Shown in pieces: positions 31,166 to 55,282 of a stretch of 64,000 nt of DNA (position 1 is the first letter of the stretch; each line of letters begins with the position of its first letter). The position numbers and the translations under genes were made by a program. The stretch comes from Fidelibacterota bacterium (GTDB taxonomy: Bacteria > Fidelibacterota > Marinisomatia > Marinisomatales > TCS55): contig JBHHUS010000002.1 of NCBI GenBank assembly GCA_046861615.1, positions 473-64,472 on the forward strand, in the 5' to 3' direction. A model generated the notes under the pieces. It was not told the DNA's origin, did not search any database, and saw nothing but the letters and a program-made list of their open reading frames with translations.

Positions 31166-31173
31166 AATTACTC

Positions 31174-32871: not shown

Positions 32872-32885
32872 TTTATTTTTTTAAA

Positions 32886-33157: not shown

Positions 33158-33213
33158 TAATTTTCAATAATCGTTCCTTTAACAGCTAATGGAAAAATGC
33201 TTTTCAGAAATAG

Positions 33214-33286
<73 letters not shown>

Positions 33287-33430
33287 ATTACTTTGACAGT
33301 AAACACCCAACAAAACGGTTCGAGCAGGATTTAATAATAATCATCGTGGAGGAATATTCACCTTTTAAAGTCGTAAAATTTACCCGCTTTCGATCACCGG
33401 AAGCAAGCATAGGAATCGAAACAAAAATAC

Positions 33431-34248: not shown

Positions 34249-34260
34249 TGTAACTCCAAA

Positions 34261-35254: not shown

Positions 35255-35367
35255 ATACTCAGCTTATGAACTAACGGTTGTCTTTACATTTGCATTTATC
35301 AAACCTGATCGCAAATCAAAGTAACCCCCATCTTTTCCTACCAGACGTAGGTTGTTTTGTAAAGGTA

Positions 35368-37632: not shown

Positions 37633-37714
37633 GGCACATCCTGAAGTTTAGTGTAATAAAATTTTTCCGGTCTGTGAATTTACAGAAAATTGGCTATAGT
37701 TCAAGTGCGATAGT

Positions 37715-40513: not shown

Positions 40514-40516
40514 GAG

Positions 40517-40957: not shown

Positions 40958-42840
40958 TATTGTCGTGGTTGTAATTGAGCCCAGTCTTCATCTGAAAAAT
41001 TTGTGATTTCTTTCGTGATTACGTCCATTTCTACCCATTGTCCTGAGTTATAAAACATAATTTTCTGACCATTGTCCGACCAACTGGCTTTTGAACCAGC
41101 GTGAATGGAATTTACCTGACCGCCAAAGGGAACATCGAAGGTATAAATTGTACTGTCGTCACTCCAAAATAAAACTTGATCGCTATTGGGTGACCAGCGA
41201 AGATTTTTAAAATAGTAACTTGATTCGGGGAATTTGGAACTGGATACTAAAGTTTCGTTGTCACCATTTTTATCACTGAGATAAAGTCCGGAACCGGTTA
41301 AAACATAAACGAGCTCTTTTCCATCAGGAGAAAGTCTTGGATTGATATATTTTTGAAAATCCGTTGCCCGTTTTATAGTCGTTTCAATAGTTCCATTAAG
41401 ACCAAGAATATATATATTCCGGACACCGCGGTTATTATTGGCCTGATTGGAATCCTTCCAACAAATGTAGCGCCCATCAGGTAAAATGCCAGCTTCACCG
41501 TAAAACTGGTTATTTTCTACAATTGTCAGTTGGTTATACAGGAAATGAGTGGAATCAATTTCTTCCAGGGTGCAGAGAACACCCTCATCCGTGCTGAGAA
41601 TAGCTTTTTTCCCGTCAGTACTGAAATTGACAAACTGGGGTTGACCTGTTCCGGGAATTCCAGAAATTATATTCAGATTGCTTCCATCCGCATTCGCTAT
41701 TAAACCGGCGGCACCCGCTACAAAGGCAAAAATCTTCTTCCCTCCTTGAATCCAGACCGGCTTGATCGCCTGCACACCGATAATTGTAGCAATGGTTTTA
41801 TCATGGTTTATAATCCGAATATCGCTGCCGTTGACGGTATCCAACACAGTTTGAACGACAATGGATTGAAAGGAACTCCCCCACTGGAACTGACTTGCCG
41901 CAGATTGATCCCAATGATCCTGAACCACAATCCGGTAATAATGAATCTTATCCTCAGCGGTAGATATGGCTGCGGTAGTATTGGTTGGAACTGTAATCGT
42001 ACTTTTCTCATCGATAACGCTGCCGGTAGAATCTACTTCCTGAATTACATAGTGTTTAAAATCAGATTCTGTTGACTGACTCCAGCGAAGGGAGAAAAGA
42101 CCTTGCTGATAAGTGATTGAATCCAATGTGACTGCCTGTGGTGGTGGATCAATCAGACTGCTTTTCCCCTTCCCCCTGGTTTCCCTGTCGGTCGTGTCCA
42201 CTACCCCAATTAAGAACGTATTTTTGACAGTGGGATCAAACTTTGTTAAAAAATATCTGTCAGCTTTAATATCGTTAAAACTATCAATTTGTAATGTATC
42301 CCCATTGCCGATCTGTTGATAAAGATTATACTGTTTGAAATCGACTTCCGTCGTCGGAGTCCACTTCACCGCCATCGTATCTCCCTGGGCTCCAATGAAA
42401 TAATAAACTGAATCCACATTCACCGCTGCCGGTATTGCGGGAATCAAGGGGTTTATTTTTGTCTGGACAGAATTTGAATAATAATCCCCGGCATAGGCAG
42501 TTAACCGGTAGGTAATTGGCGAAGGATCCTGAACGATTACTTTTAAATCCAGGGCTGTATCGATCCAGGATAAGGTTGAATCACCTAGGGTGACAATACT
42601 ATCCTGCCAGTCCTTGTCCCCAACCCGTTTATCGATCTTAAAACCGTCAAAATCAAGACCTTTCCGTTCCCAGGTGAGTTGAATCCGGTTAGTATCCAGT
42701 TGGGCGGCTTTAAAATTAACCGGCGTCCATAGGGCCCGGTCACTGTGTGGATCGTAGGGATTCTCCCAGACCCGGTCTTCAATTGAACAGGCTAGCAACA
42801 ATACCAGCAGAAGGAAAATCGCAACTGGATTGATTCTCAT
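40957..42840 (-). CDS. Lipoprotein with FN3-like repeats and TolB/PD40-like beta-propeller
   Basis: 627-aa ORF. Lipobox LLLAC, an EDR..NPYDP motif after the Cys, FN3-like W..(S/T) repeats, and C-terminal PD40-like repeats (SPDGKELVY, WSPNSDQVLF). Confidence 0.7.
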   Translation of the reverse strand: MRINPVAIFLLLVLLLACSIEDRVWENPYDPHSDRALWTPVNFKAAQLDTNRIQLTWERKGLDFDGFKIDKRVGDKDWQDSIVTLGDSTLSWIDTALDLKVIVQDPSPITYRLTAYAGDYYSNSVQTKINPLIPAIPAAVNVDSVYYFIGAQGDTMAVKWTPTTEVDFKQYNLYQQIGNGDTLQIDSFNDIKADRYFLTKFDPTVKNTFLIGVVDTTDRETRGKGKSSLIDPPPQAVTLDSITYQQGLFSLRWSQSTESDFKHYVIQEVDSTGSVIDEKSTITVPTNTTAAISTAEDKIHYYRIVVQDHWDQSAASQFQWGSSFQSIVVQTVLDTVNGSDIRIINHDKTIATIIGVQAIKPVWIQGGKKIFAFVAGAAGLIANADGSNLNIISGIPGTGQPQFVNFSTDGKKAILSTDEGVLCTLEEIDSTHFLYNQLTIVENNQFYGEAGILPDGRYICWKDSNQANNNRGVRNIYILGLNGTIETTIKRATDFQKYINPRLSPDGKELVYVLTGSGLYLSDKNGDNETLVSSSKFPESSYYFKNLRWSPNSDQVLFWSDDSTIYTFDVPFGGQVNSIHAGSKASWSDNGQKIMFYNSGQWVEMDVITKEITNFSDEDWAQLQPRQ

Positions 42841-44036
42841 GGCCGGGATAGCAACTTATCGATTTTAAAGATCTGTACCTGATAATAGACCGCAGGCAGG
42901 AATAGGCTTCCACTGAGAACTACTATATAGGGTTTCAATCGATCCTGATCCTCCACCAGGGTTCGTAATTTCTCTGGGTGACTGCTGTCTTTACGATAGG
43001 CCTGGTAATTTTTATCAGCTGTGTATTGTAAATATCCCCGGTAAATGGTTGAACCCACGGCGCCCGTAATTAATAAATTTCTTTTCAGTTTAAGCCCCCG
43101 CCTCTTGGCCTTCAACATTTCCCGTTTGATCAGCTCAACTTTAAGACGCGTGGTTCGCTGGGGATAAATTTTAAAACTACCCCCTTTAATTACATAAATA
43201 TCCGATTCCAGATGGTACGATCCCGTTTTCAGATCTCTTAAAATTTTGGTTTTCGGTGCAATTGTCAGGCGCGTGGCGCTGCCCTTAGGAACTAAAAATA
43301 TTCCTGCCGGAAGGCGATCCTTGAACAACACATTACCGATTTTGGGTACAGGATGTAGGGGACTTAAATTCAGGAAAATAACCCGGCTGGCATCTTTAGG
43401 AGGTAATTTATTTAGGGTGAATTTTTTGAAATTGTCCTTAGTGACCGTTATTGGATTGCTCTCCACCGTGACTCTTTTCAGTGCCACCGGTGTTAGTTCT
43501 GACAATGTATCTCTACCAACAATTACCCAGGCTCCCGCCGGCCGGGTATGGATATAAACCATTTCTTCAGCCTGGTGGACCGTTAGTGGTATTCTCTGGG
43601 TTAACAGCATCAGCGCCACATTCTTCATACCCCTGGAGAGTAAACCTTCCAATGAATTTTCCCGATCATAGGTCACGGTGTTTATCGCCCGACCGGTGGG
43701 CGGATCGTAGAGTTGTGACTGAACGACAAAGACCTCCCCCACCTTCAATATTTGGGTATTCACCAGCAGGTTCACCTTCAAAATCAATCCGGCCACTACG
43801 GCACAGTCATAGGAAGGACAGTCAGAAATGTTATAACCGGATAAGACCTGATTCATTTCATCGCGATCCAGCACCTTCAGGGTATCAAAACGCAAGAGTT
43901 CCATTCTCAGTGACTCAGATAATGAATCCAGGGCATTTTGAGTTAACCCCTCTCCTGTAAAGTCCAAAACGGCAATGGACTGGTCTGCCATCACTGATGA
44001 CAGGAATAGGATACTGCTGATAAGGAATTGCTTCAT
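42837..44036 (-). CDS. Exported protein: LpoB/CsgG-fold-like N-domain + PEGA-like domain + C-terminal membrane segments
   Basis: 399-aa ORF with four parts: a signal peptide, an IAVLDF.GEG...........L...L pattern, a PEGA-like stretch (IHTRPAGAWVIVGRDTLSELTPVAL), and hydrophobic helices near the C-terminus. It overlaps the next ORF by 4 nt. Confidence 0.6.
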   Translation of the reverse strand: MKQFLISSILFLSSVMADQSIAVLDFTGEGLTQNALDSLSESLRMELLRFDTLKVLDRDEMNQVLSGYNISDCPSYDCAVVAGLILKVNLLVNTQILKVGEVFVVQSQLYDPPTGRAINTVTYDRENSLEGLLSRGMKNVALMLLTQRIPLTVHQAEEMVYIHTRPAGAWVIVGRDTLSELTPVALKRVTVESNPITVTKDNFKKFTLNKLPPKDASRVIFLNLSPLHPVPKIGNVLFKDRLPAGIFLVPKGSATRLTIAPKTKILRDLKTGSYHLESDIYVIKGGSFKIYPQRTTRLKVELIKREMLKAKRRGLKLKRNLLITGAVGSTIYRGYLQYTADKNYQAYRKDSSHPEKLRTLVEDQDRLKPYIVVLSGSLFLPAVYYQVQIFKIDKLLSRP

Positions 44037-44130
44037 GTAAACGTCGATTGAAGAAGCAGTAAATTAATCCGTGTTCTTCTTTATTACCAATGTCGGAATT
44101 CGATCAGAAAAACAAGTGTCGATTAAATCG

Positions 44131-45387
44131 TTAATCCCGATCCAGGGCAAAATCCAGGTGTGAACTGTAGCCGCTGGTTTCCCCCAGTTTTTCGCCCGCC
44201 CGGCTGTACCGGATCAATTTATGGTTATCGGCTTCCTGTACCAGGATCCCAGGTATACCGGTCCCGGGAACAACCTGAAGGTTGTAAATCTGCGGTACTG
44301 ACTGATCTAAAATGACCGTCGAAACTTCTGGATGATCGTGCTGTAGATATCCGGTTTCCCAATTGGAAAAACGCTCAAGACTGCCAGTATAGTAACAATC
44401 ACCAGAGAAGGGGTCCAGAGACAAATCGTGAATAAACAATTCTGTTTTGTAAAAAGAAAAGTTTCCAGCGGAGTCGACCCGGGCGATGCCTGAGGCGGTT
44501 GAGACCCAGACACCGCTACCCAGGGGATCGGCTTCCAGCGGTCCGGGATTATCCAAATTAGTGAAGACAACACGCTCTTTGATAAGCGGGCGGGTTTTTA
44601 TCATTAATAATTCATTGGTGGCACTCATGGACACCCACAAATTTTCCGTTAATGCATTGTATGCCAATTCTGTTGCCAGCGTTAACTCCCGGTCCATATC
44701 TATCTGCCAGAGGATCGTACCAGAATAATCGAAGGCATATAGAGTATTATCCTCTAAAACAGTGTAAAGTACTTGATTCAGGGAATCCAGCGTCAAAGCA
44801 ATCGGTTCCGCCGGAAGAGGTATCATAATCTTTGGTTTAAGCTTTGTTGTAAGCCCCAGAAAGGTTTTTTGAAAATAATCGGCCACCCATATAATCTTCT
44901 CCCCGGGGTCGTATTCTACGGACCGAGGCGAATCATACTCCCGCTCTGTGGTGATCGTTTTACCATCGTAGGAAATATTTCGAAGCTTAAATCCATACAT
45001 ATCGGCTACCCATACGTTTTGCGGTCCCGGGGTGAATCCTACCGGGTCGGAAATGGCACTCTGGGAAAATTCAGTGAGAGCGCGAACGGCATAATAATAA
45101 GGTTGATCATAGGTTAATCCCTGGTCAATGAAAAACGTATTTTCCGCCATAATGGATCCTTGAATGATCAGTTCATCAGGTTCCACGCCGCGGTAAATTT
45201 CATACGCCTGAAGATGGTTCACTTCAAAAGAGTTCCAGACTAAACGGGCTGTGTCCCGCCGGGAAACAACTCTCAAACCTGTGGGTGCACCATGACTTAA
45301 ATGATTTTCCGGGTCCAGAGGATTCAATCGCTCCCGATCCTCACAGGCAGTGAATAAGGATAATAATAAGAGTACAATCGCGCGCAT
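44131..45387 (-). CDS. Lipoprotein with FN3-like domain and beta-propeller (paralogous N-terminus to 40957..42840)
   Basis: 418-aa ORF. Lipobox LFTAC followed by EDRERLNPLDP, then an FN3-like segment (APTGLRVV......L.W......L.AYEIYRG) and a repeat-rich C-terminal region. Confidence 0.68.
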   Translation of the reverse strand: MRAIVLLLLSLFTACEDRERLNPLDPENHLSHGAPTGLRVVSRRDTARLVWNSFEVNHLQAYEIYRGVEPDELIIQGSIMAENTFFIDQGLTYDQPYYYAVRALTEFSQSAISDPVGFTPGPQNVWVADMYGFKLRNISYDGKTITTEREYDSPRSVEYDPGEKIIWVADYFQKTFLGLTTKLKPKIMIPLPAEPIALTLDSLNQVLYTVLEDNTLYAFDYSGTILWQIDMDRELTLATELAYNALTENLWVSMSATNELLMIKTRPLIKERVVFTNLDNPGPLEADPLGSGVWVSTASGIARVDSAGNFSFYKTELFIHDLSLDPFSGDCYYTGSLERFSNWETGYLQHDHPEVSTVILDQSVPQIYNLQVVPGTGIPGILVQEADNHKLIRYSRAGEKLGETSGYSSHLDFALDRD

Positions 45388-45776
45388 TACGGGTAGAATG
45401 ATTTCATTATTAATAAAAAACCTGTCTGCACACCCAGATAAGTCGCACTGGTATAGCGATCGTATCTACGGGCGCGGTTGTAACGGGAGTCGATCAAATC
45501 AAGATTTCCCTCTTTTAAATAGCGGTGGTAAGCTTTTTCGGCAGTAGAATGGAACTTCACTGCCGCCAAACCGGATAAGAGTACAATTCCGACTCCGCTG
45601 AAAAATTCAGCTTGGGAAAAGTGCAGTCCCATCTGGTTAGGCGTTGTCAGGAGCGTGTCGGCGTGATAATCAGGTATTTGAAATGAACCAGTGGAATTAC
45701 CGGTAACCTGCCCCGGAACAAAGCTTTGGATCAAAATTAAGCAGAAGCAATATTTCTGAAACCAGTGGTTGAGCAT
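45387..45776 (-). CDS. Hypothetical exported protein
   Basis: The ORF extends to 45851, but that part overlaps the upstream gene. The start was chosen at MLNHWFQKYCFCLILIQSF (a signal-like sequence), 1 nt after the upstream stop. 129 aa. Confidence 0.5.
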   Translation of the reverse strand: MLNHWFQKYCFCLILIQSFVPGQVTGNSTGSFQIPDYHADTLLTTPNQMGLHFSQAEFFSGVGIVLLSGLAAVKFHSTAEKAYHRYLKEGNLDLIDSRYNRARRYDRYTSATYLGVQTGFLLIMKSFYP

Positions 45777-45777
45777 T

Positions 45778-48549
45778 TTAAAAATCCCAGCCGAAGAAAA
45801 ACTGGGTAAACCAGCCTTCTTGCAGTTTACTGAAGTCGGTCCGTTTCCCAATGTCCCACCTCAGAACCGCGCCGCCAAACCGAACCCGTAAACCAAAACC
45901 CAGACTGCCGATGAATCCCTGAAAGGACTGTTCCCAGGCATTTCCGACATCCACGAACAAGGCTCCTTCCCAGGGTCCTGTATCAACGTTGACTGACTCT
46001 GAATCCAGGGTTAGAGATCGGACTAAAGGAAAACGTAATTCCGTATTCAAAAGCACGTACTTCCGGCCGTAAATGCCATTGAACGGATAACCGCGCAATC
46101 CCCAGCTCCCGCCTATGTAAAACCGACGAACATCTTTACCATCATTAGCCAGAATCATCATTCGGTGAGCCAAGGTCAATTTACTGTTAGGATGATAATA
46201 ATATCGGAAGTCTAATAAACCGGTATAATTGTAAATTCGGGCTCTGGATAGATCAAAGGTGGGACTAACCGTTATGCGCCCGCGCCAACCGTCGATTGGT
46301 CCGATGAGTGACCACAGTGAATTATCGTGAACTAATGAAATTGTATTGGCGATTAGAGTTGCTGATCTTTGGTCGCCGGGGGCATATTTTTTCCGGGATT
46401 GCCACAGGGAAATACTCATTTCAAAACGATCGAACACATTAATCGGTACGTTAATTCCACCCCGTACTCCCACTGTTTGTTCGTAGTAAAATGCCTGGTA
46501 GGGGTCGAAATAATCGTTCGAAAAATAAAACGCTCCCAGAGCCACATTTGAGCGCTGAGACAGATCGACAAAGGTAACCGCTACATTAAAACGGGAAAGA
46601 AATTCTGATGGAGTCTGAGCCGAATTAGAGAGCATGAAATTGAAATAGCGATTTCCCAGTATGTCTGATACGGAAATCTGCCCCCCTCCAAGGAACCCAA
46701 ACTGCGGATCGAAAGCCACTGCTGTCTGGGCAATATCAAAAGTATATTTAAGTTTATAGGGCAGCGGTTTCTCGGTTACCTGGAGTGAATCTACCTCCAT
46801 CGGGGATGAAATATTAGTGGTGCGTTGTTCAATCTTCCCGGGTCTATCCAGCGTTTCCAGTTCCAAATAATGAATTCTGAAACCATAATCCTGGAACATC
46901 ACCAGAGCCATGCTGTCACCGGTGACCGGGATGAAATCAGTTACACCAGTATGATAATTGGTTTCTTGATATATTTCCCCTAGCTCCTCATATTCCGACT
47001 GTTGACCGATATTTAACTCCCAGATATTGTTAATGCCACTGCGATTAGAAAGAAAATGGATAATGTTTTTGTTACCCGGACCACAGCGCGGTTTAATGTT
47101 TTCATATTCATCATCGGTCACAGCTGTAATAACACCGGTTTCATAATCCAAAAGGAACAGGTTCATGGCCGGGGCCGGAGTTACATTTCCACGGTCAGAA
47201 GAAAACAGAATTTTTTCCCCGTAGGGGCTGAAAACCGGATCCCAGTCGGCAAACTGGTCATTCGTCAAACGAATCAGAATGTCCGGTTTCACTTTCCAGA
47301 GGTAAAGGTCATTGAATCCAGAGAAACGGCTTCCACTGAAAACGACCGTTTTCCCGTCTTGCGACCAGTTTGGCGAACGGATAGACACCAGCTCTTTTTG
47401 AAACAGTTCGGCCTTCTCCACGCCAGTGTACAGATCTAAAATGACCAGTACATCTCGTCCCTGGCGTAGCGTTGGAAAAACCAGCTCACCGAATTGGTTA
47501 ACAGCCATTTCTGATTGCAACAAATGGAGTGATTCATAGTCCGGTGTTCGCTCCCCTTTTAATATCAGGGTTGGCTCCCGGGACTTCAATGATTGCTGAT
47601 AAATATTGGTAAATCCATCACGATTGGACTGGTAAATAATCTGTTTTGTACTATCGCGCTTCCAATACAAAGCGGGGGCACTGTTTATTCTACCAGTTGT
47701 CAAAAGCGAATTTCCTACAGGAGGCAAAGTTTCGTTTTCAAGGGCGGCCGCGAATTTTTTCTTCAGTGACAGCGACCACTCCTGCAGTAAATCCTCGTAT
47801 TTTATCCCGGTAACCTGTTCCAGAGCAGCTTCAAATGAGTCAAACTGCCAGTAGGTCTCCAGCAGTGTTAATATGGCCTCTTGACCGAACCGATTCTGGA
47901 AAAAACGAAAAAAGGACTGACCTTCCTTATACAATAAAAATCCGCCTGTTTTATGCAACGGTTTCAGCTTATCCTGGAGAACTGCATCCCGTAGAACTGT
48001 TTCCGCCTGGTTGTCCCAGCCAATGGACCACCATTCGGCCAATCCCTCAGTAAACCAGAGCGGCAATGACGTTGTATTCCAACGTTTTTCCTTGCGCAGA
48101 TGATAGGCTACCTTTTTATTCGTAAATACGTGGACCAGTTCATGCCGAATAACATGGTAAAAATCCCAGATTCGGCCATTGTAAGGCAATACTACCCGCC
48201 CCTTAATAAATTCAAAGAAGCCGCCAATTCCTTCCGGAATCTGGTTGGGCAATACATTAGTCTGCCGGAACTGGACCGGGCTGGCGTACAGGATCAGGGG
48301 TATTTTTTCGTCCGGCTGATACTCAAAAAGATTCACATATTCCCGGAAAGTCTCTTCAGCAATTCCAGCTGCAGTGAAAGCGATATCCTGTTCCTCCCGG
48401 TAAAAGTAAATATTAAAATGTTCCGTCTTTAATGTTTGCCACTGAAATTGGTCGTATTGAATTTTATTACGCCCAAAATAAAATTGGCTATTGCCTGTTG
48501 CAGACAACAACAGACCCAGTAAAATGATGCCGGAAAAAGAATGTCTCAT
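45778..48549 (-). CDS. Fusion protein: peptidase-MA-like zinc protease + PD40/TolB-like propeller + Omp85 (bacterial surface antigen) beta-barrel
   Basis: 923-aa ORF with a signal peptide, HELVH plus WFTEGLAEWW (HExxH...E), and PD40-like repeats (SPNWSQDGKTVVFSG, FSPYGEKILFSSDR). C-terminal Omp85-type motifs are GGSWGLRGYP, LNTELRFPL and GALFVDVGNAW, and the protein ends in GWDF. Confidence 0.75.
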   Translation of the reverse strand: MRHSFSGIILLGLLLSATGNSQFYFGRNKIQYDQFQWQTLKTEHFNIYFYREEQDIAFTAAGIAEETFREYVNLFEYQPDEKIPLILYASPVQFRQTNVLPNQIPEGIGGFFEFIKGRVVLPYNGRIWDFYHVIRHELVHVFTNKKVAYHLRKEKRWNTTSLPLWFTEGLAEWWSIGWDNQAETVLRDAVLQDKLKPLHKTGGFLLYKEGQSFFRFFQNRFGQEAILTLLETYWQFDSFEAALEQVTGIKYEDLLQEWSLSLKKKFAAALENETLPPVGNSLLTTGRINSAPALYWKRDSTKQIIYQSNRDGFTNIYQQSLKSREPTLILKGERTPDYESLHLLQSEMAVNQFGELVFPTLRQGRDVLVILDLYTGVEKAELFQKELVSIRSPNWSQDGKTVVFSGSRFSGFNDLYLWKVKPDILIRLTNDQFADWDPVFSPYGEKILFSSDRGNVTPAPAMNLFLLDYETGVITAVTDDEYENIKPRCGPGNKNIIHFLSNRSGINNIWELNIGQQSEYEELGEIYQETNYHTGVTDFIPVTGDSMALVMFQDYGFRIHYLELETLDRPGKIEQRTTNISSPMEVDSLQVTEKPLPYKLKYTFDIAQTAVAFDPQFGFLGGGQISVSDILGNRYFNFMLSNSAQTPSEFLSRFNVAVTFVDLSQRSNVALGAFYFSNDYFDPYQAFYYEQTVGVRGGINVPINVFDRFEMSISLWQSRKKYAPGDQRSATLIANTISLVHDNSLWSLIGPIDGWRGRITVSPTFDLSRARIYNYTGLLDFRYYYHPNSKLTLAHRMMILANDGKDVRRFYIGGSWGLRGYPFNGIYGRKYVLLNTELRFPLVRSLTLDSESVNVDTGPWEGALFVDVGNAWEQSFQGFIGSLGFGLRVRFGGAVLRWDIGKRTDFSKLQEGWFTQFFFGWDF

Positions 48550-48617
48550 GACGTCGGACGAAACTTATTCAATCCAGCATTTAAGGGAAAGAATAATAGT
48601 TTAAATCAAAATCCGGG

Positions 48618-48645
48618 GGAAATGCAAATATTTGTAAGCATTTCC
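48618..48645 (-). terminator. Hairpin downstream of the response-regulator gene
   Basis: GGAAATGC/GCATTTCC 8-bp stem, followed on the minus strand by CCCGGATTTTGATTT. It separates the two-component genes from the envelope operon. Confidence 0.45.
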
Positions 48646-48659
48646 TTAAGCACTAAAAC

Positions 48660-49103
48660 CTAGTTTGAGTGGAAGTATTTATCCAGCGTCTTCTGCAAAT
48701 CTTTGATTAAATAGGGCTTAGGAATGTAATCGTTAAACGAATGGGAATCAATTTTGCCGACTACCCGTTTTTCAAAGGCTGTTACAGCAATAATCGGAGT
48801 TTTTTTAAACCGATCAGAATTCCTGAATTTTTCCATCAGGGTTATTCCTGAAATTCCAGGCCCCAGGGCAATATCCAGTAACATCCCGTCCACCGAATTA
48901 TTTTCCATTAATTCCAGTGCCTTTTCACCCGTTTCGGCTTCTACTGCTTCATAACCTAGCCGTTTTAAGGCAAACATAATATATTGACGAGCAGAGTCAG
49001 TGTCCTCTACTACTAAAAATAAAATTCTATTTTCCTTAGATTCCGAATGTTTACCGTTTTCTTCTGCGTTTGTCATTATTTTTTTACTTTCATGATTAAT
49101 CAA
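48660..49103 (-). CDS. Stand-alone response regulator receiver protein (CheY-like)
   Basis: 147-aa ORF with acidic pocket VVEDTD, phospho-acceptor context MLLDIAL, and conserved T/K positions (IIAVTAF ... KP). Confidence 0.85.
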   Translation of the reverse strand: MINHESKKIMTNAEENGKHSESKENRILFLVVEDTDSARQYIMFALKRLGYEAVEAETGEKALELMENNSVDGMLLDIALGPGISGITLMEKFRNSDRFKKTPIIAVTAFEKRVVGKIDSHSFNDYIPKPYLIKDLQKTLDKYFHSN

Positions 49104-49128
49104 TTTTCATAGGTGTTTAAATCAACGA

Positions 49129-51636
49129 TTATTCCGACAATGGTAATGAAAAACAAAAACTGTTGCCCGTTGGTTTATTTGGTTCCACCCAGGCATCACC
49201 TCCATGGGCTTCAGCGATTCGTTTTACAATCGCTAAACCCAACCCCCGACCCCGCTTGACACCATTTTCCAACTGTACATTCCGTCCAAAAACCTGTTCC
49301 CGCAGTTCGGGATCGATTGTTTTACCGAAATCTTTCAGTTTACCCACCGCACGATCCTTTTCCCGGGTTAATTCGATAATCAGTTTTTTCCCTTCACTGG
49401 CGTATTTAACCGCATTAGTCATATAATTTCGGAGAATTTCCTGGATAATCGGGTTTGCCAGCACTTCCAGTTTTTCCGGAATTCTTAGTTCCAGGTCCAA
49501 ATTATGATCGTTTAAAATCTGTTTAAACTCATTTGCCAGATCAGAAACCATTTTACTGAGGTCTAAGTTTTTCTTGGTAATTTCTTCCCCCAGAGCCAGT
49601 TGTGAGAGCGTTTTGGCATTATCTAAAACCTGCACAAGACTAATGCTGCTGTCGCGAATCAGGCGAATGGCCTCATCATCCGGATTATCCAACATCATCA
49701 TATCTGCCAGGCCCTGGATTACACCGGCAGGATTTTTTAAATCGTGACTGATCACATCCAGCAACATTTCCTTGAGAGTGTTGGAATCAGATAATTCCTT
49801 CGCCGCCTGTCGGTATTTCTTTTCCGAAAATTTTACTTTTTCGCCGGCACGTTCCCGGTTAATCGTGACTGCAATTTGTTCAGAGGTAAAAGCCAGGATT
49901 TTCAAGTCATCAACCGTATATAGTGTTGGATTTGTATAGCTCTGGAGACCAATCACACCGATTACTTCTCCTTCCGTGATAAGCGGTGCGCCCATCCATT
50001 GCTCAGAAGGAGTACCGATCAACTCAATTTTCCCTTCCTCCGCCAGTTTATAGATGTCTTTTTTATTCAGTAATAACGGAGTTTTGATTTCAATAATGTA
50101 TTCCGTTAGACCCTTTCCCGGTTTTATATCTTCCGGCTTAGGATCTTTTTCATCAATAAAGAAGGGAAAGGAAAGTCGATTCTCTTCACGATCATAAAAG
50201 GCAATATAAAAATTGCTGGTATCTAAAATAGTACTTAGGGCCTTGTGAATGGCTGAATATAGGTCCTCCAGATTATCGGTAGTGCTGGCGGCCCGGGAAA
50301 TCTGGTAAATAACATTCTTCAACCGTTCATCATGTTTCCGCTCAGTGACATTGTGAACCACAACCTGGGCTGCCGGGCGTCCCTCATGGGCAACGGGCAG
50401 GGCCGAAACTTCCACGTTGATTTCCTGACCGTCATTACGGATATATTTATGTTCCACCTGACCTACATCGACACCCTTTTCAATGACTGTCCGATTACGA
50501 TCCAAAACGGAATTATGATATTCTGGTTTAACGATATCCAGAAACGGTTTATTTATCATAGAATCATCATCCGGTGCTCCCAGCATATTTTTCATCGCTT
50601 TGTTCAGGAAAACAATTTTTCCATCCTGATGAATGCAAATACCATCCGGTGAATATTCAATTAATTGGCGGTATTGCTCTTCTGATTTCTGGATCTTCTG
50701 TAATCCCTTGTGTAAACTGTTCTGTCGCCGTAATTGGTGGTAAGTCAATCCGGACACTATGAAAGCAATAATCAATCCAATAATTAACAGCCATCCCAGA
50801 TAGGGATTCATGTATTGAGTCAGGAATTCAGGTTTAGGTATTAAAAAAAGTGAAAATTCGCGATTTAATACAGGATAGTAACTCTTTCCGATTATTTCAG
50901 GCAATTCTGATCCTGAAGGCATATTGGAATAGATCTGGTTTTCTCCGGAGAAAATCTGGAGATAGTATTTTTCATCGCGAACGCGGAGCCAGGTTTGATT
51001 GAAAAATTCGTCAATTCTGAAGACACCATTCAGATATCCTTCAACTTTACCATCCTTAATAAGCGGGAAATAAGTCGCGAAGCCTTTTCCGCCCTGCAAA
51101 AGTGTGAGGGGCGGAGTAGCTACATCTTTCCCGGTTTGTTCCGCCTGAATAAAACTCTCTGCCGCTTCAGGATGTTCGTGCAAATCCTTATTCAGAGCCT
51201 GTAAATTAGGGGATTCGGGCACCACCCAGCGTATAACACCCTGAGGGTCAATATAATTGATGGCTTGGAAACCTGGTTTTACGTCCATAAAGGATAACGC
51301 TTCTCGCGTAAAATCCTTCTGATTCTTGACTTTATTTAAAAACCACTCCTGACGTAAATGGCGTAAAACATTGAAATAACTCTCCGTATTCTCCTGTAAA
51401 CGACTGGCGATAAACCGTGCAGTGAGATTTGTCGTAAGCTCTATTTCACCCCAATCCTCTTGCTGGATGACATTCCGAAAACCAACCGTTGCTAACAAGA
51501 TAGCAAAAAAAGTTATAATTGGTACTATTAAAAAGTGATTAGAAAAAAAAGGTGGCAAAGTATCAATTATCTGACGGTACAACTCCATCTGACCATTTTC
51601 AGTTTGAATGTTATTACTTTGCTTATTCTGCTGCAT
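49129..51636 (-). CDS. Sensor histidine kinase (extracytoplasmic sensor domain, PAS, GAF, HisKA, HATPase_c)
   Basis: 835-aa ORF. Two TM helices flank a roughly 230-aa external domain, followed by PAS-like and GAF-like regions. H-box ISHDLKNP and G-boxes (GRGLGLAI) are present. Confidence 0.88.
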   Translation of the reverse strand: MQQNKQSNNIQTENGQMELYRQIIDTLPPFFSNHFLIVPIITFFAILLATVGFRNVIQQEDWGEIELTTNLTARFIASRLQENTESYFNVLRHLRQEWFLNKVKNQKDFTREALSFMDVKPGFQAINYIDPQGVIRWVVPESPNLQALNKDLHEHPEAAESFIQAEQTGKDVATPPLTLLQGGKGFATYFPLIKDGKVEGYLNGVFRIDEFFNQTWLRVRDEKYYLQIFSGENQIYSNMPSGSELPEIIGKSYYPVLNREFSLFLIPKPEFLTQYMNPYLGWLLIIGLIIAFIVSGLTYHQLRRQNSLHKGLQKIQKSEEQYRQLIEYSPDGICIHQDGKIVFLNKAMKNMLGAPDDDSMINKPFLDIVKPEYHNSVLDRNRTVIEKGVDVGQVEHKYIRNDGQEINVEVSALPVAHEGRPAAQVVVHNVTERKHDERLKNVIYQISRAASTTDNLEDLYSAIHKALSTILDTSNFYIAFYDREENRLSFPFFIDEKDPKPEDIKPGKGLTEYIIEIKTPLLLNKKDIYKLAEEGKIELIGTPSEQWMGAPLITEGEVIGVIGLQSYTNPTLYTVDDLKILAFTSEQIAVTINRERAGEKVKFSEKKYRQAAKELSDSNTLKEMLLDVISHDLKNPAGVIQGLADMMMLDNPDDEAIRLIRDSSISLVQVLDNAKTLSQLALGEEITKKNLDLSKMVSDLANEFKQILNDHNLDLELRIPEKLEVLANPIIQEILRNYMTNAVKYASEGKKLIIELTREKDRAVGKLKDFGKTIDPELREQVFGRNVQLENGVKRGRGLGLAIVKRIAEAHGGDAWVEPNKPTGNSFCFSLPLSE

Positions 51637-51812
51637 TTAAAAAGATTCTTTATTCCGTCTTCGATTACCCTGTTAACTAGATCTGGATATTATTTTACCT
51701 GATTCTAAGTGCTTAAGAGTTTAAAGCACTGAAATTATCAGTTCAAAATAGATTCTATTGCGATTTGTTCGGATCGGAATGTTCTTCAAAGTCAAATAAA
51801 AGTAACCTCCGA

Positions 51813-52043
51813 TTAACCGTCTAAGCTTAATAACATATTCTTTTTATTACACTTGTCAGCTTCCGACTTAGTAGAATAATCCTCAGTATAAATAACTTTG
51901 TAGGGCCGGCGGGCTTTAGTGGACCTAACTTTACCCTGGTTGTGAATCTTCAGTCGTTTCGGTACATCACGCGAATGACCAATATAATGGAAAGGATGAT
52001 CGAGCGATTTCAATACGTAGACCGTGTACATCTTGCAATCCAT
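51813..52043 (-). pseudogene. Truncated second copy of the GIY-YIG nuclease gene
   Basis: The first 62 codons are nucleotide-identical to 52195..52380. The reading frame diverges after ...STKSEA and ends after 76 aa, lacking the conserved C-terminal helix region (QKREYYLKK...). Confidence 0.6.
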
Positions 52044-52075
52044 ACTTTAATTCAGTTGCGGAGAGAGAGGGATTC
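51858..52075. repeat. Direct repeat, copy B (218 bp, identical to 52195..52412)
   Basis: Base-by-base comparison of the two blocks shows no mismatch. The period is 337 bp. Confidence 0.95.
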
Positions 52076-52109
52076 CCTCGAAGAGGTTTCTTCGAAAGAA
52101 CCCTCGATA
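52059..52109 (-). pseudogene. tRNA-Ser 3' fragment interrupted in the T-loop by a 22-nt palindromic insert
   Basis: In minus sense: TATCGAGGGTTC + 22-nt insert (+ strand 52076..52097) + GAATCCCTCTCTCTCCG. The flanks equal the last 29 nt of the intact tRNA-Ser. Confidence 0.7.
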
Positions 52110-52113
52110 TGGG

Positions 52114-52380
52114 TTACCAGACTCCCCGGGATTTCAAGGTTTCACGCAGCCATTGATTCCCAGCACCCTTTTTTAAATAGTATTCTCGTTTTTGAGCTTC
52201 CGACTTAGTAGAATAATCCTCAGTATAAATAACTTTGTAGGGCCGGCGGGCTTTAGTGGACCTAACTTTACCCTGGTTGTGAATCTTCAGTCGTTTCGGT
52301 ACATCACGCGAATGACCAATATAATGGAAAGGATGATCGAGCGATTTCAATACGTAGACCGTGTACATCTTGCAATCCAT
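52114..52380 (-). CDS. Small GIY-YIG nuclease family protein (UPF0213/COG2827-like)
   Basis: 88-aa ORF with YTVYVLKS...HYIGHS......R...H....V..T......K.IY.E.Y.TKSEA.KRE..LK. It starts 15 nt after the 3' end of tRNA-Ser. The true start may be the internal MYTVYV. Confidence 0.82.
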   Translation of the reverse strand: MDCKMYTVYVLKSLDHPFHYIGHSRDVPKRLKIHNQGKVRSTKARRPYKVIYTEDYSTKSEAQKREYYLKKGAGNQWLRETLKSRGVW

Positions 52381-52412
52381 ACTTTAATTCAGTTGCGGAG
52401 AGAGAGGGATTC
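52195..52412. repeat. Direct repeat, copy A (218 bp, identical to 51858..52075)
   Basis: It covers the last 17 nt of the intact tRNA-Ser, a 15-nt spacer and the first 62 codons of the GIY-YIG ORF. Confidence 0.95.
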
Positions 52413-52488
52413 GAACCCTCGATAGACGGGAGCACCGCCTATACCCGCTTAGCAGGCGGGCGCCTTCAGCCAGCTCGGCCATCTCTCC
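52396..52488 (-). tRNA. tRNA-Ser (anticodon GCT)
   Basis: 93-nt class II tRNA. Acceptor GGAGAGA/TCTCTCC, anticodon stem CCCGC/GCGGG with loop CTGCTAA, long variable arm, and T-arm GAGGG-TTCGAAT-CCCTC. Confidence 0.92.
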
Positions 52489-52706
52489 AAACGCTATTTT
52501 CCTTTTAAAAAAGCGGGCTGAAATTACCCCTTACTTTTTTCACTGACAAATTAAACCATTACCAGCTTCTGAAATCAATCCGAAGGAAGCTTCTCTACTT
52601 TAACAGATCAATTTTGTAAATGTGATTTGATTTGCTAAATTTATTTAACGTAAACAAATGAGAAGTATCGAATTCAGATTAATCAATCAGATATCAGGAG
52701 GTAAAA

Positions 52707-52883
52707 TTGAACTGCGTGAAAAATTTCGTGATAATGTTTGCGCTGGTATTTGCCGTATCAGCCGTCGTGTCCTTTTTATATAGTTGGTTATTTCACGGAA
52801 CGGGAATTATCGACTGGGGTTCCTCGGTCCGCTTGGGGATTATTCTTGGAATCGTCCTGTCTTGGGTAGAATCAAGAAAATAA
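52707..52883 (+). CDS. Small two-helix membrane protein (hypothetical)
   Basis: 58-codon ORF below the size cutoff of the track. AGGAGG lies 5 nt upstream of a TTG, with in-frame GTG and ATG alternatives. Two hydrophobic helices are FVIMFALVFAVSAVVSFLYSWLF and VRLGIILGIVLSWV. Confidence 0.4.
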   Translation: MNCVKNFVIMFALVFAVSAVVSFLYSWLFHGTGIIDWGSSVRLGIILGIVLSWVESRK

Positions 52884-52964
52884 ATGCTATCGACTTAAAA
52901 AATGTCAAGGCTATTTTTTGCTACACGTTAGGCAGGAAATATATTGAGCAACTAATTGGAGTGG

Positions 52965-53129
52965 TTACTTTGTAAGTTTATCGACGATCGAAGAAAATAA
53001 AGTTTTGTATTCATTCACTACAAACTTTACCAGGGGGCTATCGGGGAAAAAGTAGGAAATAGCAACCAGGATCACAATCAGGAGAATAATTCTCCGTAAC
53101 AATTTCTTAATCAATCCACTGCCAATCAT
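52965..53129 (-). CDS. Small single-pass membrane protein (hypothetical)
   Basis: 54-codon ATG ORF downstream of dprA (MIGSGLIKKLLRRIILLIVILVAISYFF...). No clear Shine-Dalgarno sequence. Confidence 0.3.
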   Translation of the reverse strand: MIGSGLIKKLLRRIILLIVILVAISYFFPDSPLVKFVVNEYKTLFSSIVDKLTK

Positions 53130-53217
53130 GACTATTGAAAATACAAATTATTTCCGGGTACAAATACTAAAATTCATCTTTTAGGAAACAGGATAATTTT
53201 TTCGGTTTTTCCTTACT

Positions 53218-54312
53218 TTAAACCCTGACAAAGTGCTTACCGGTTAGTTGCATAACCACTCCTTTCAATTCCAACGTCAGCAATAGCGCCAGAGCCTTGG
53301 TAACTTCCATATCCGCCGATTTAACGATCTCGTCAATGTGCAATGGCTGTTCCCCCAATAGTTCCACCAATAAACGTTCTTTATCGGTCAAATTCAGGGT
53401 TATGGCCTGTTGTTTTGGTTCTATCGGGTTGAAGAATCTATTTTGAATTGATTGCAGAATATCATCACCCGATTGAATCGGTATTGCTCCGTTCCGGATC
53501 AATCGATTGCAGCCCACACTCAATTTATCGGTAATTCTCCCCGGTACAGCAAAAACTTCCCGATTCTGGTCAATTGCATTTAAAGCAGTGAGAATCGCTC
53601 CACTATGCGTCCCCGCTTCCACCACCAGCGTTCCGTGGGACAGGCCACTGATAATCCGGTTCCGCTGGGGAAAATTGACCGCATCCGGTTTCGTTCCTAG
53701 GGGAAATTCTGTAATTACCGTACCGTCAGCACAAATTTCTTCCGCCAATCTTTCATTTTCACGGGGATAGGTGGTATCAATCCCGTTTCCCAGCACAGCG
53801 ATCGTTCTTCCCTCTTGTTTTAAAGTGCTTCTATGGGCGATACTGTCTACGCCCCGAGCCAGCCCGCTGACAATCACAATTCCAGAAGTCACCAGTTCAG
53901 TAACAATCCTGGATGTAGCTTTTTTACCGTAAATAGTGACGGACCGCGTCCCCACTACTGCCAGACAATCCTCTTTTGATTTTAAGGGCTGACCTTTAAC
54001 GTACAGCAACACTGGTGGATCATACATTTTTTTCATAAGGGTTGGAAAATCAGTGTCCCAAAAAGTTAAGATTTGAACACCAAGGGCCTCTGCCCTTTCC
54101 AGCTCCTGTTCACCAAAATCAAATTGATGGTAATTACGAATAGAAGCAGCCAGTTTCAAATCAATACCTTCCACGGAGCATAATTCCGCCGTGGAGAGCT
54201 TAAATACCGATTGTGGTTCTTTAAAATGTGAAACCAGTATCCGTACCCGCTGAGGACCCAAACGAGGCGTATTTAATAAATTGAACAGTGCAACTTTGTC
54301 TTCAGCTTTCAT
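53218..54312 (-). CDS. dprA: DNA processing protein DprA (Smf)
   Basis: 364-aa ORF with a Rossmann-like core containing GLARGVDSIAHR and a C-terminal winged-helix-like tail. Confidence 0.92.
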   Translation of the reverse strand: MKAEDKVALFNLLNTPRLGPQRVRILVSHFKEPQSVFKLSTAELCSVEGIDLKLAASIRNYHQFDFGEQELERAEALGVQILTFWDTDFPTLMKKMYDPPVLLYVKGQPLKSKEDCLAVVGTRSVTIYGKKATSRIVTELVTSGIVIVSGLARGVDSIAHRSTLKQEGRTIAVLGNGIDTTYPRENERLAEEICADGTVITEFPLGTKPDAVNFPQRNRIISGLSHGTLVVEAGTHSGAILTALNAIDQNREVFAVPGRITDKLSVGCNRLIRNGAIPIQSGDDILQSIQNRFFNPIEPKQQAITLNLTDKERLLVELLGEQPLHIDEIVKSADMEVTKALALLLTLELKGVVMQLTGKHFVRV

Positions 54313-55282
54313 TTAACCTTCCGGTGATTATCTGTATCAGTTCCAGTAATCCGGCTCCAGAGACAGCGGAAATATCGATCACATATTCTGGTATTCTTTC
54401 CCACTTTTGCTGATCTTGATTATTTTCAGCCAACAGATCGGATTTTGAACGGACGAGAAGAATCGGTTTTAATAGTAAATCCCGATTGAATTGGTACAAT
54501 TCTTCTTTCAGGGATTGGAATACAGTTTTAGGGTTTGATTCACTGCTTTCGATCAGGAACAACAGTAATTTATTCCGTTCAATATGCCGAAGAAATCGAT
54601 GACCCAAACCCTTTCCTTTGGCAGCACCTTCAATCAAACCGGGAATGTCCGCCATGACAAATGATTTGTATTCCCCATATTTTACGATCCCTAAATGCGG
54701 TTCCAGAGTGGTAAAGGGATAATCAGCAATTTTAGGCCGGGCGGCAGATAATACCGAAAGCAACGTCGACTTCCCCGCATTTGGAAGTCCCACCAGACCT
54801 ACGTCCGCGATGACTTTCAGTTCAAATTCGAATAGACCTTTTTCTCCTGGCGTGCCCGGTTGAGCATAACGGGGGGATTGTTTGGTTGCTGTCTTGAACT
54901 GGGTATTCCCTCTTCCTCCCTTTCCACCCTTGCATATAATGACTTCTTTACCTGGTATAGTTACATCGGCCAGAATAGTATTCGTTTTTAAATCCCGGAC
55001 AATCGTTCCCTGCGGGACAGGGATAAGCACATCTTTTCCGTCCCGTCCACTTTTCTGGTTGGAAGACCCCGGTTGACCATTTTCAGCCCGGTAAGCTCGG
55101 GCATAACGAATGTCCCGTAAGGTACGCAAATTTGCATCCACCTTAATAATGATATTTCCACCACGGCCACCGTCGCCACCATCAGGTCCTCCCTTGGGAA
55201 CAAATTTTTCACGACGGAATGACACGGAGCCTGGACCACCATTTCCGGCCTGTAATTCCACCTTGGTATAATCAATGAACAC
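54302..55282 (-). CDS. obg: GTPase Obg/CgtA (short form, no C-terminal extension)
   Basis: 326-aa ORF with a Gly-rich Obg fold (GGDGG.GG), G1 GLPNAGKST and G3 DIPGLIEGA. Confidence 0.95.
   Translation of the reverse strand: MFIDYTKVELQAGNGGPGSVSFRREKFVPKGGPDGGDGGRGGNIIIKVDANLRTLRDIRYARAYRAENGQPGSSNQKSGRDGKDVLIPVPQGTIVRDLKTNTILADVTIPGKEVIICKGGKGGRGNTQFKTATKQSPRYAQPGTPGEKGLFEFELKVIADVGLVGLPNAGKSTLLSVLSAARPKIADYPFTTLEPHLGIVKYGEYKSFVMADIPGLIEGAAKGKGLGHRFLRHIERNKLLLFLIESSESNPKTVFQSLKEELYQFNRDLLLKPILLVRSKSDLLAENNQDQQKWERIPEYVIDISAVSGAGLLELIQIITGRLNES

Follow-up and report, generated by a model that had tools for sequence, protein, structure and literature searches.

The window, that is, the whole 64,000-nucleotide (nt) stretch of Fidelibacterota DNA that was analysed (GenBank assembly GCA_046861615.1, contig JBHHUS010000002.1, positions 473 to 64,472), carries on its minus strand a small nuclease cassette attached to a transfer RNA (tRNA) gene. 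An intact tRNA-Ser(GCT) gene is followed by an open reading frame (ORF) for a minimal GIY-YIG nuclease, ORF A, by a partial second copy of the same tRNA, and by a second, shorter nuclease reading frame, ORF B. The ORF lies at the exact boundary of the tRNA, on the tRNA strand and with no room for a promoter, and on its far side stands a partial copy of the same tRNA that is split by a hairpin. The same overall anatomy is found at about 90 loci from genomes and metagenomes, in which linkage to tRNA genes, agreement of strand, asymmetry of the junctions and a correlation of protein clade with tRNA isotype are all observed. The locus is probably best read, with confidence somewhat better than even, as a minimal selfish homing-type cassette that resides in tRNA transcription units, spreads by a break-and-copy mechanism and is present here twice in tandem, once intact and once truncated. 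That this is a selfish, tRNA-specific and tRNA-transcribed cassette is held more firmly than the full explanation, and the break-and-copy step is held less firmly.

The tRNA-Ser locus of the window

The resident target gene is an intact tRNA-Ser(GCT) at 52395/6..52488 on the minus strand, as found by ARAGORN and by Rfam (RF00005, 58.8 bits, E = 3.6e-11). Read along that strand, it is followed by a 14-nt spacer, AACTGAATTAAAGT (52381..52394, minus, from the sequence and the spacer census), which separates the tRNA 3' end from the ATG of ORF A (52114..52380, minus, 88 amino acids (aa), Pfam PF01541 at E = 5e-16). Next come CCCA, the three successive segments TATCGAGGGTTC, TTTCGAAGAAACCTCTTCGAGG and GAATCCCTCTCTCTCCGC, the 14-nt spacer again, and ORF B (51813..52043, minus, 76 aa, PF01541 at E = 3e-12). 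Given that the spacer is so short, the cassette has no room for a promoter of its own, and tRNA-Ser(GCT) is the probable source of its transcription.

The first of the three segments (52098..52109, minus) is a second copy of positions 65-76 of the 94 positions of the tRNA, identified by blastn-short (query 65-76) and gapped alignment. It begins 4 nt past the stop codon of ORF A with the last part of the variable arm, followed by the 5' half of the T stem and by TTC. A 22-nt palindromic insert (52076..52097, minus) then interrupts the copy exactly between T-loop positions C56 and G57, and the copy resumes with the duplicated 3' tail (52058..52075, minus), which covers positions 77-94. The tail, made up of the 3' part of the T loop, the 3' half of the T stem, the acceptor 3' strand and the discriminator (GAATCC...CCGC), is identical to the intact tRNA at 18 of 18 positions, and an exact 18-nt direct repeat of the tRNA 3' portion is thereby present at both ends of the cassette. 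A first-pass annotation of the window, made from the letters alone, had placed the second copy next to a mere 17-nt fragment of the tRNA 3' end. The fragment is there, but the remnant is longer, running over positions 65-94 and holding the 22-nt insert in its T loop. What most sets the locus apart is this hairpin insert, together with the longer remnant around it.

Together with the flanking halves of the T arm, the insert is predicted to form one continuous hairpin of about 17 base pairs (bp) and -24.9 kcal/mol, with a stability well outside that of shuffled sequences (z = -4.2). An alternative parse yields twin mini-hairpins, TTTC-GAA-GAAA and CCTC-TTC-GAGG. Inserts homologous to that of the window are found at the same position in at least 26 unique cases in other loci.

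The tandem arrangement agrees with what the first-pass annotation had reported. Repeat copy 1 (52195..52412, minus) and repeat copy 2 (51858..52075, minus) are identical base for base over 218 bp, and the identity stops sharply at both edges. Each block consists, as had been described, of a tRNA-Ser(GCT) tail of 17-18 nt, a spacer of 14-15 nt and 62 codons, those of ORF A in copy 1 and of ORF B in copy 2. A repeat search of the window returned 223 nt at 99% identity with a period of 337, and no third copy of the block elsewhere in the 64 kb; a perfect repeat of 218 bp is far beyond chance expectation. The nuclease ORF is alone between the repeats, with no gene for a tyrosine or serine recombinase, and neither an integrase nor a transposase is present in about 10 kb around the cassette, again as had been stated. 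The locus is a typical member of the family with an extra truncated copy.

The assembly of the tandem copy was followed up by exact-protein look-ups. That of DprA, which is encoded nearby, returned three Logan contigs of the same population, all of which end before the repeat; one alone (L096) reaches the tRNA-Ser gene, and it ends inside the gene at 52452. Look-ups of ORF A, of the neighbouring histidine kinase and of the protein P0001 returned no record. The order of tRNA, ORF, hairpin-interrupted remnant and second ORF is found in independent assemblies, for example at loci L012, L015, L014, L005, L070 and L078 (loci are given by number here and below). Because this layout recurs in many independent assemblies, an assembly artefact is unlikely.

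The nuclease

ORF A matches PF01541 with 59.2 bits and ORF B with 47.0 bits, at a cutoff of 22.6. The 88-aa product of ORF A is counted from the first ATG; from M5 (52368), the start to which its homologs align, it has 84 aa. The residues that are invariant in the family alignment (A1), namely Y9, Y20, G22, R30, H34, N35 and E66, are all present in it. No further domain was detected in ORF A by Pfam or NCBIfam, and the protein ends 20-25 residues past the catalytic Glu. A profile search of the PDB matched 1zg2 (UPF0213 BH0048, 9e-12), 1ywl (EF2693, 8e-11) and chains of SLX1 (1e-5 to 7e-4), and the nearest database protein, a 72-aa "GIY-YIG nuclease family protein" from a Fidelibacterota (Marinimicrobia) metagenome-assembled genome (MAG), equals ORF B read from M5. 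Judged by these sequence matches, ORF A is a complete minimal GIY-YIG nuclease of the Slx1-like/UPF0213 branch, outside the homing endonuclease (HEase) branch. The Slx1-like/UPF0213 branch has been read as consisting of largely vertically inherited repair enzymes, with no mention of linkage to tRNA genes (Dunin-Horkawicz et al., 2006, PMC1564403).

ORF B equals ORF A over 62 codons and, after ...KSEA, continues as DKCNKKNMLLSLDG to its stop codon. Given that it diverges after codon 62, the family-invariant R65 and E66 are lost. No tRNA remnant was found downstream of ORF B, which is probably a truncated and inactive distal copy; the first-pass annotation had suspected as much of the 76-aa product, and the absence of R65 and E66 from the alignment agrees with this.

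A defence or phage origin of the nuclease was considered and rejected. The PADLOC defence models gave only a marginal match to PDC-S14 (E = 0.001-0.007 over about 30 residues), the PHROG families gave no match to the nuclease, and plasmid and phage records hold hardly any member of the family, with 2 plasmid and 6 phage records matching at 37-48% identity.

A family of cassettes at tRNA genes

Relatives were gathered by scans of genomes (11 loci), viruses (2 loci) and metagenomes (the best 80 of at least 513, 513 of the first 600 pattern hits having been confirmed as relatives). Of the 93 loci fetched, 92 match the ORF family by tblastn at E <= 1e-5, and local tblastn and ARAGORN runs on them gave about 115 copies of the ORF, including 110 ORFs of at least 60 aa. 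The hosts in the genome records include Neomarinimicrobiota, Pedobacter, Sphingobacteriales, "Ca. Erginobacter", Patescibacteria and Leptospirales. Full-text searches of the literature, subscription-only papers being outside their scope, found no account of bacterial loci in which a small GIY-YIG gene has hairpin-interrupted tRNA duplicates beside it, and the cassettes apparently form a large, undescribed family on tRNA genes of several bacterial phyla.

At nearly every locus the ORF has an intact tRNA on one side and, on the other, a duplicate of that tRNA which is partial or near-complete, and two arrangements can be told apart. The 'down' type, to which the window belongs, has an intact tRNA, the ORF and a copy that runs from position x to the end of the tRNA, where x is 4 to 65. 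The 'up' type, seen in Pedobacter and in the Leu, Lys and many Arg clades, has a copy of positions 1 to y, the ORF and then the intact tRNA; ORFs of this type often read into the tRNA and stop at the TAG of the conserved U8-A9-G10.

An intact tRNA is found within 60 nt of 63 of the 110 ORFs, of which 25 are downstream of it, 24 upstream and 14 overlapping, and a further 26 ORFs lie at 61-700 nt, either as tandem copies or with a pseudo-tRNA intervening. Within 800 nt of the homologs, all 84 genes for tRNA or transfer-messenger RNA (tmRNA) are on the strand of the ORF, and the density of tRNA genes is 0.56 per kb near the ORFs versus 0.039 per kb farther out. Spacers can be very short: 8 of the 25 downstream ORFs start between -1 and 4 nt past the tRNA 3' end, 8 of the 24 upstream ones reach into the tRNA by 10-15 nt (further overlaps were counted apart), and in the closest relatives of the window cassette the ATG lies 1-3 nt after the tRNA 3' end (CCGC-NA-ATG). 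Co-transcription of tRNA and mRNA, as the first-pass annotation had proposed, would fit both the agreement of strand in 84 of 84 cases and the tiny spacers. Twenty ORFs are without a tRNA call; about half of them are at contig ends, and interrupted tRNA copies are present at L057, L084 and L092, where no tRNA was called. At L049 the tRNA escaped ARAGORN because of a group I intron within it.

The isotypes near the ORFs are Ser (41), Arg (19), Leu (8) and Cys (5), followed by Gln, Val, Glu, Lys, His, Pro, Gly and Met, and weakly by Thr, at a distance of 565 nt. Linkage to tRNA genes and duplicated tRNA ends among relatives were the features by which the first-pass annotation had proposed to judge its own suggestion, and the homologs are overwhelmingly tRNA-linked and the duplicated ends do recur. 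Its two narrower claims need widening. The window cassette is indeed at tRNA-Ser, as was claimed for the target, but the family is found also at genes for Arg, Leu, Cys, Lys, Gln, Glu, His, Val, Gly, Met and Pro tRNAs and for tmRNA. Similarly, the ORF is 3' of the tRNA at many loci, as had been expected, but it may lie on either side, with 24 upstream.

Several individual loci extend this picture. In a Patescibacteria MAG (L009:2485-3330) the cassette follows a tmRNA gene, the 3' end of which (a T-arm-like part and the acceptor strand) is duplicated past the ORF, with GGTTC and AAATCCCGG separated by an insert of about 60 nt that makes two hairpins; therefore, tmRNA genes are colonised too. 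At L049:1860-2640 an 'up' cassette, consisting of a copy of tRNA positions 1-21, CCTGCCTGCCGGCAGGCAGG, and the ORF, lies directly upstream of a tRNA that was missed by ARAGORN and whose anticodon loop holds a group I intron (RF00028, 90.8 bits, 2310-2583), such that the cassette and the intron are separate selfish elements on one tRNA gene. At L010:440-800 and L061:500-840, where there is no tRNA, the ORF lies between the arms of inverted repeats, CCCGCACTTTTT...AAAAAGTGCGGG and CCCCGTAGGAAAT...ATTTCCTACGGGG, respectively. The ORF there looks as if it occupies the loop of a hairpin or terminator, and these two loci may link ORF-bearing elements to ORF-less palindromic inserts.

Hairpin inserts in the second tRNA copy

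A census of inserts was made from 100 local alignments, with a score of at least 30, of resident tRNAs to the flanking segments, some of these alignments being noise. It contains 154 inserts of at least 10 nt, located in the D loop (55), the T loop (42), the anticodon loop (33) or elsewhere (24, partly alignment noise). The inserts are palindromic and GC-rich (mean 62%), typically 18-24 nt long and in some cases up to 170 nt. Every well-aligned T-loop insert is at GGTTC|GAnTCC. In 22 of 26 unique T-loop cases, the T arm and the insert make a single extended hairpin, which places the palindrome on the dyad of the TTC|GAA core. One insert family, YCCC-GAA-GGGA / YYCC-TTY-GGRR, includes the insert of the window, and further families are CCTGCCTGCC|GGCAGGCAGG and CCCGCCCG...CGGGCGGG. 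The twin mini-hairpin parse fits 36 of 87 inserts, and it was rejected as the sole fold because T-loop inserts usually reach greater stability as one extended hairpin together with the T stem.

Homologous T-loop inserts differ by compensatory double changes, including TTCC/GGAA, TTTC/GAAA, TCTC/GAGA and TCCC/GGGA, and CTCC/GGAG versus CCTC/GAGG. These pairs were tabulated by script; the MAFFT alignment (A2) misaligned loops of unequal length. Folding energies of the sense and antisense strands are without bias (42 versus 37), which makes the test either uninformative or favourable to DNA palindromes. The hairpin motifs cluster at the cassettes, given that 17 of 18, 13 of 13 and 16 of 16 occurrences lie within 300 nt of the ORFs, versus 28% expected.

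Two further ideas were tried and abandoned. That the hairpins act in general as homology breakers, keeping tRNA repeats shorter than about 22 bp, does not hold given uninterrupted identities of 36-71 nt in L035, L080, L088, L074 and L001. The Pedo-repair RNA motif (RF01715), associated with UvrC-like genes in Pedobacter, was considered as well. It has no Rfam match in the Pedobacter-type loci, and as published, from one species, it is a three-stem junction of about 200 nt that bears no relation to the inserts (PMC2864571). Searches of the window and its relatives with the other Rfam families returned only tRNA and antisense look-alikes of tRNA-Ser (RF04351).

Full-length copies of tRNA-Ser in which the T-loop hairpin is the sole insert are present at L001:2888-3000 and 3450-3562, L002:2703-2808, and L003:2491-2601 and 3451-3580. 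The interrupted tRNA-Ser genes of these three loci match the intact gene next to them at 100% over 70 nt and are not called by ARAGORN. Downstream of a tRNA-Glu(TTC), at L030:2914-3600, there is an array that has no ORF (TRF period 256, 2.2 copies) and holds about five tail copies some 125 nt apart; its units contain hairpins and terminator-like stems and end in the acceptor 3' strand of tRNA-Glu, CCTCCTACGGACTAC. The 95-nt 'tRNA-Ser(GCT)' that ARAGORN calls at L021:3359-3453 is a copy of tRNA-Arg(CCG) with a hairpin insert in its D loop, misread as a long variable arm.

Signs of mobility

The protein clades track the tRNA isotype, and the genomic flanks are mostly unrelated. The Leu clade, for example, is entirely of the 'up' type and is found at CAA, CAG and GAG genes, there are several Arg clades as well as Cys, Lys and Gln clades, and the clade of the window occupies four tRNA-Ser isoacceptor genes (TGA, CGA, GGA and GCT). 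Unrelated clades can also meet at one tRNA, either in tandem (L005) or on its two sides (L028 and L073), which would reflect independent colonisations. Tandem neighbours share from 60% to 100% nucleotide identity. Decayed copies are common, and include ORF B of the window, L007 (stop codons), L005b (a frameshift) and the tail-less terminal members of arrays.

The junctions are asymmetric. The tRNA sequence outside the outermost hairpin, on the side of the flank, matches the resident tRNA at 1037 of 1066 positions, whereas that between the outermost hairpin and the ORF matches at 1144 of 1321. On this comparison the outermost hairpin is the junction, and the inner sequence is divergent or chimeric. 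L051 is such a chimera, in which the 5' half of the T stem is of the Arg(TCG) type (G49) and the tail of the resident Arg(ACG) type (T65). L005a carries GAGGG in this half-stem, against GTGGG in its resident tRNA, which rules out pairing with the resident tail. The tails that follow 'down' ORFs are either perfect (17 of 17 positions in 21 of 38) or absent, and shuffled controls never come within 5 mismatches.

Hairpins are also gained or lost between close strains. L048:1255-1375 differs from L051:2020-2200 and L053:360-535, which are from strains 99.8% identical to it, by a 62-nt hairpin, CCCGCCCGGCTGAC...GTCGGACGGG. This hairpin is next to an earlier one and just before G57, exactly at the T-loop junction of a pseudo-tRNA-Arg.

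Proposed mechanism and alternative explanations

A homing-type mechanism is suggested by analogy with SegB of phage T4. The ORF would be expressed from the tRNA transcript, and 3' processing of the tRNA would leave a nearly leaderless mRNA. The nuclease would then break tRNA gene DNA (tDNA) at or near the conserved loop motif GGTTC|GAATCC, and the broken ends would find homology, by strand invasion, in the two tRNA copies that flank the ORF of the donor. Synthesis-dependent annealing would copy the ORF, the element-borne tRNA piece and the hairpin into the recipient tRNA gene, giving a product that consists of the intact tRNA, the ORF, the element-borne tRNA piece, the hairpin and, outside the hairpin, the tail of the recipient itself. 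The flanking tRNA copies would serve as portable homology arms, and because tRNA sequence is on both sides of the cassette the ORF could be copied into any orthologous or paralogous tRNA gene, whatever its flanks. The redundant copy would be immune, its cut or recognition site being occupied by the hairpin. The intact tRNA would stay cleavable, and repeated rounds or unequal exchange could build tandem arrays with decaying distal copies, which would account for ORF A and ORF B. Conversion of redundant genes by the hairpin only could result in the full-length interrupted copies. The proposed cycle would explain the position of the hairpin, the chimeric junctions, the spread among isoacceptors and the tandem arrays with decayed distal members.

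Several observations weigh against this proposal. The hairpins in different loops of one locus are alike, being near-copies in L041, L028, L006, L029 and L090, which is not explained by simple homology-templated copying and points to an added process of hairpin insertion. The nuclease is a catalytic domain alone, which leaves the isotype specificity unexplained, and the intact tRNA beside the ORF keeps the presumed target, such that self-cleavage must somehow be tolerated or avoided. The spacer of the window is 14 nt from the first ATG, or 26 nt from the homolog-aligned start, versus 1-3 nt in the closest relatives, and no tRNA is near the ORF in L058, L083, L086, L037, L065, L072, L010 and L061. 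No empty-site allele was recovered, for the window locus none in the exact-protein look-ups, and mobility therefore rests on phylogenetic and structural inference. Finally, the tandem copy of the window is from a MAG assembly, and the Logan contigs stop short of it.

Given that near-copy hairpins in different loops are left unexplained, models in which the hairpin is a mobile unit or the nuclease is structure-specific stay alive. One of these, tentatively entertained and rather unlikely, is that an Slx1-like mini-nuclease cuts the tips of extruded tDNA stem-loops (the D, anticodon and T arms, as hairpins or cruciforms) and so mobilises its own gene together with palindromic mini-inserts. If true, this would be a new class of prokaryotic mobile element, one that reads the shape of nucleic acid instead of its sequence and makes homology arms from its target tRNA. 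In a more radical variant, the transcript of the hairpin-studded pseudo-tRNA may be the cofactor or guide of the domain-only nuclease. It is somewhat more doubtful that the hairpins are themselves the primary mobile units, similar to repetitive extragenic palindromes (REPs) or miniature inverted-repeat transposable elements (MITEs), which would insert at stem-loop tips and be mobilised by the Slx1-like nuclease, the ORF and the tRNA duplication being secondary to repeated cutting at tDNA cruciform tips. Near-copies across the loops of a locus would be expected from such units, and the gain or loss of a hairpin between 99.8% identical strains, the near-same hairpin in two pseudo-tRNAs of L051 whose ORFs share just 60% identity, and the placement of inserts on the dyad of the T-arm palindrome speak for them as well. 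The symmetry of sense and antisense folding is that expected of DNA palindromes, and SLX1, the nearest characterised relative, is structure-specific. However, GIY-YIG enzymes hydrolyse DNA without a covalent intermediate, no prokaryotic GIY-YIG transposase is known, the hairpins have no flanking target-site duplication, and their motifs are essentially absent from the flanks of about 5 kb away from the ORFs, unlike genome-wide REPs. On their own, mobile hairpins would also leave the tRNA duplication and the isotype-specific clades unexplained.

The pseudo-tRNA could instead act as RNA, whether as a 3' or 5' stabiliser of the hitch-hiking mRNA, as a signal for its processing by RNase III, P or Z, as a decoy for the nuclease or its partner in the manner of an antitoxin, or as a scaffold that binds protein or serves as a guide. 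The ORF and pseudo-tRNA are always on the tRNA strand within its transcription unit, the stems of homologous T-loop inserts show compensatory changes, loops are often GNRA- or UUCG-like, and the T arm with its insert makes a helix of 15-25 bp, similar to rRNA intervening sequences, which are removed by RNase III. Such a role is nevertheless improbable: folding has no strand asymmetry, no Rfam family matches, GIY-YIG enzymes are known as DNases, and the exact loop-centre inserts in a duplicated tRNA, the chimeric junctions and the contrast of outer and inner identity would go unexplained. It is more improbable still that the ORF is a vertically inherited housekeeping nuclease, for example for repair, that happens to be in tRNA operons, with the fragments and the tandem copy as incidental duplications. 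The 2006 reading of the Slx1-like/UPF0213 branch as mainly vertical repair enzymes (PMC1564403) agrees with this, as do the orthologous position of the cassette in L006 and L007 and the near absence of the family from plasmids and phages, but different clades occur at the same tRNA, the same clade occurs at different tRNA genes with unrelated flanks, pseudogenised or truncated copies are frequent, and the orthologous loci L002 and L003 differ in arrangement; a stereotyped, hairpin-interrupted tRNA duplicate would not be expected either. There is very little to be said for an origin in which the repeat is the attachment (att) scar of a lost, integrase-mobilised island or an artefact of MAG assembly. 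A duplicated tRNA 3' end is the classic signature of attL and attR, the contig comes from a metagenome bin, and the independent Logan contigs stop before the repeat, one of them inside the tRNA gene. Against this, there is no integrase or transposase within about 10 kb, the repeats are just 337 bp apart and enclose the nuclease alone, the downstream tRNA piece has a precisely placed T-loop insert, and the same architecture occurs in dozens of independent assemblies.

Other features of the window

The cassette is neighboured by genes for a PAS/GAF histidine kinase, an Omp85-like protein, DprA, Obg and isocitrate dehydrogenase (IDH). The region of tRNA-Ser and the cassette is bracketed by a 20-nt inverted repeat (19 of 20 positions complementary; blastn-short E = 0.004 versus the window). 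The arm at 51737-51756 falls in the intergenic stretch that separates ORF B from the histidine-kinase gene, and the arm at 53433-53452 falls within the 3' part of dprA. No remnants were found at the three other tRNA genes of the window, and the group I ribozyme family RF00028 of Rfam has no match in 49000..55000 at E <= 1.

Implications

If the homing-type reading is true, the cassettes are among the smallest autonomous selfish elements in bacteria, each made of one 250-bp gene and a piece of its own target. They are common, with at least 513 relatives in the metagenome scan, all confirmed among the first 600 pattern hits. On the homing-type reading, the Slx1/UPF0213 branch, usually listed as putative repair enzymes, would in this subfamily be a mobile nuclease. 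The cassette would be a bacterial chromosomal counterpart of phage SegB and would show that homing can do without flanking synteny when the element has homology to a gene conserved in all organisms. If their specificity is real, the isotype-specific clades of this 85-aa nuclease could yield compact, programmable reagents for cutting tDNA.

There are also consequences for annotation. ARAGORN either overlooks hairpin-interrupted tRNA copies or misreads them, as with the tRNA-Ser called at L021, and full-length tRNA genes interrupted in the T loop, such as those of L001-L003, could be miscounted as absent or as functional isoacceptors. The repeats of the cassette also break assemblies at tRNA loci.

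Comparison with known systems

The closest precedent is SegB of phage T4. This GIY-YIG homing endonuclease has a 27-bp site that includes the T-arm motif GGTTCRANTCC, so that an enzyme of the GIY-YIG type can evidently read this motif, and it cuts near the 3' (CCA) end of the tRNA (PMC2330249). It also drives tandem amplification of segments that hold tRNA genes and segB (PMC13096335). Similar to the cassette, segB is a free-standing GIY-YIG gene among tRNA genes, in the T4 tRNA cluster, and it is tied to many tRNA isotypes, as is the cassette family. Its motif is the one that is split by the insert in the window, and its cut is near the tRNA end, where the window ORF starts. SegB has a DNA-binding portion besides its catalytic domain, whereas the cassette protein, at 80-90 aa, is a catalytic domain alone, belongs to the Slx1/UPF0213 branch, is chromosomal and is nearly absent from phage records. 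Lacking a DNA-binding module and coming from another branch, it does not count among the Seg/I-TevI enzymes. SegB loci have not been described as holding a duplicate of their target tRNA with hairpins in it.

With the minimal UPF0213 proteins (BH0048, 1zg2; EF2693, 1ywl; and YazA) the cassette nuclease shares its size and minimal domain, and it is also related to SLX1, a structure-specific nuclease. Plasmid matches to yazA-type genes are just 38-48% identical. Unlike the cassettes, the Slx1-like/UPF0213 branch has had neither tRNA linkage nor mobility described for it (PMC1564403).

Integrase-borne islands and prophages are likewise flanked by a direct repeat of the tRNA 3' end and regenerate an intact tRNA on one side. 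The anticodon loop and the T loop are the classic crossover sublocations of tRNA-targeting integrases. In contrast to these islands, the cassette has no integrase, is only about 300 bp long, has palindromic inserts in the displaced tRNA piece, and occurs also as a 5'-side ORF with a 5' duplicate. Group I introns that carry a homing endonuclease gene resemble it as selfish nucleases at tRNA genes with an insertion in a tRNA loop, but the window has no ribozyme, and the tRNA is kept functional by duplication instead of splicing.

Short, GC-rich palindromes tied to a dedicated nuclease gene are shared with MITEs and with REPs and their associated tyrosine transposases (RAYTs), and the replacement of helix-capping loops by extended stem-loops is shared with rRNA intervening sequences. 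However, RAYTs are HUH enzymes and REPs are dispersed in the genome, whereas the cassette nuclease is a GIY-YIG enzyme and its palindromes are confined to tRNA copies proximal to the ORF. The comparison as a whole points to a chromosomal cassette, probably of homing type and similar in its workings to a free-standing homing endonuclease gene, the distinctive part of which is its hairpin-interrupted tRNA duplicate.

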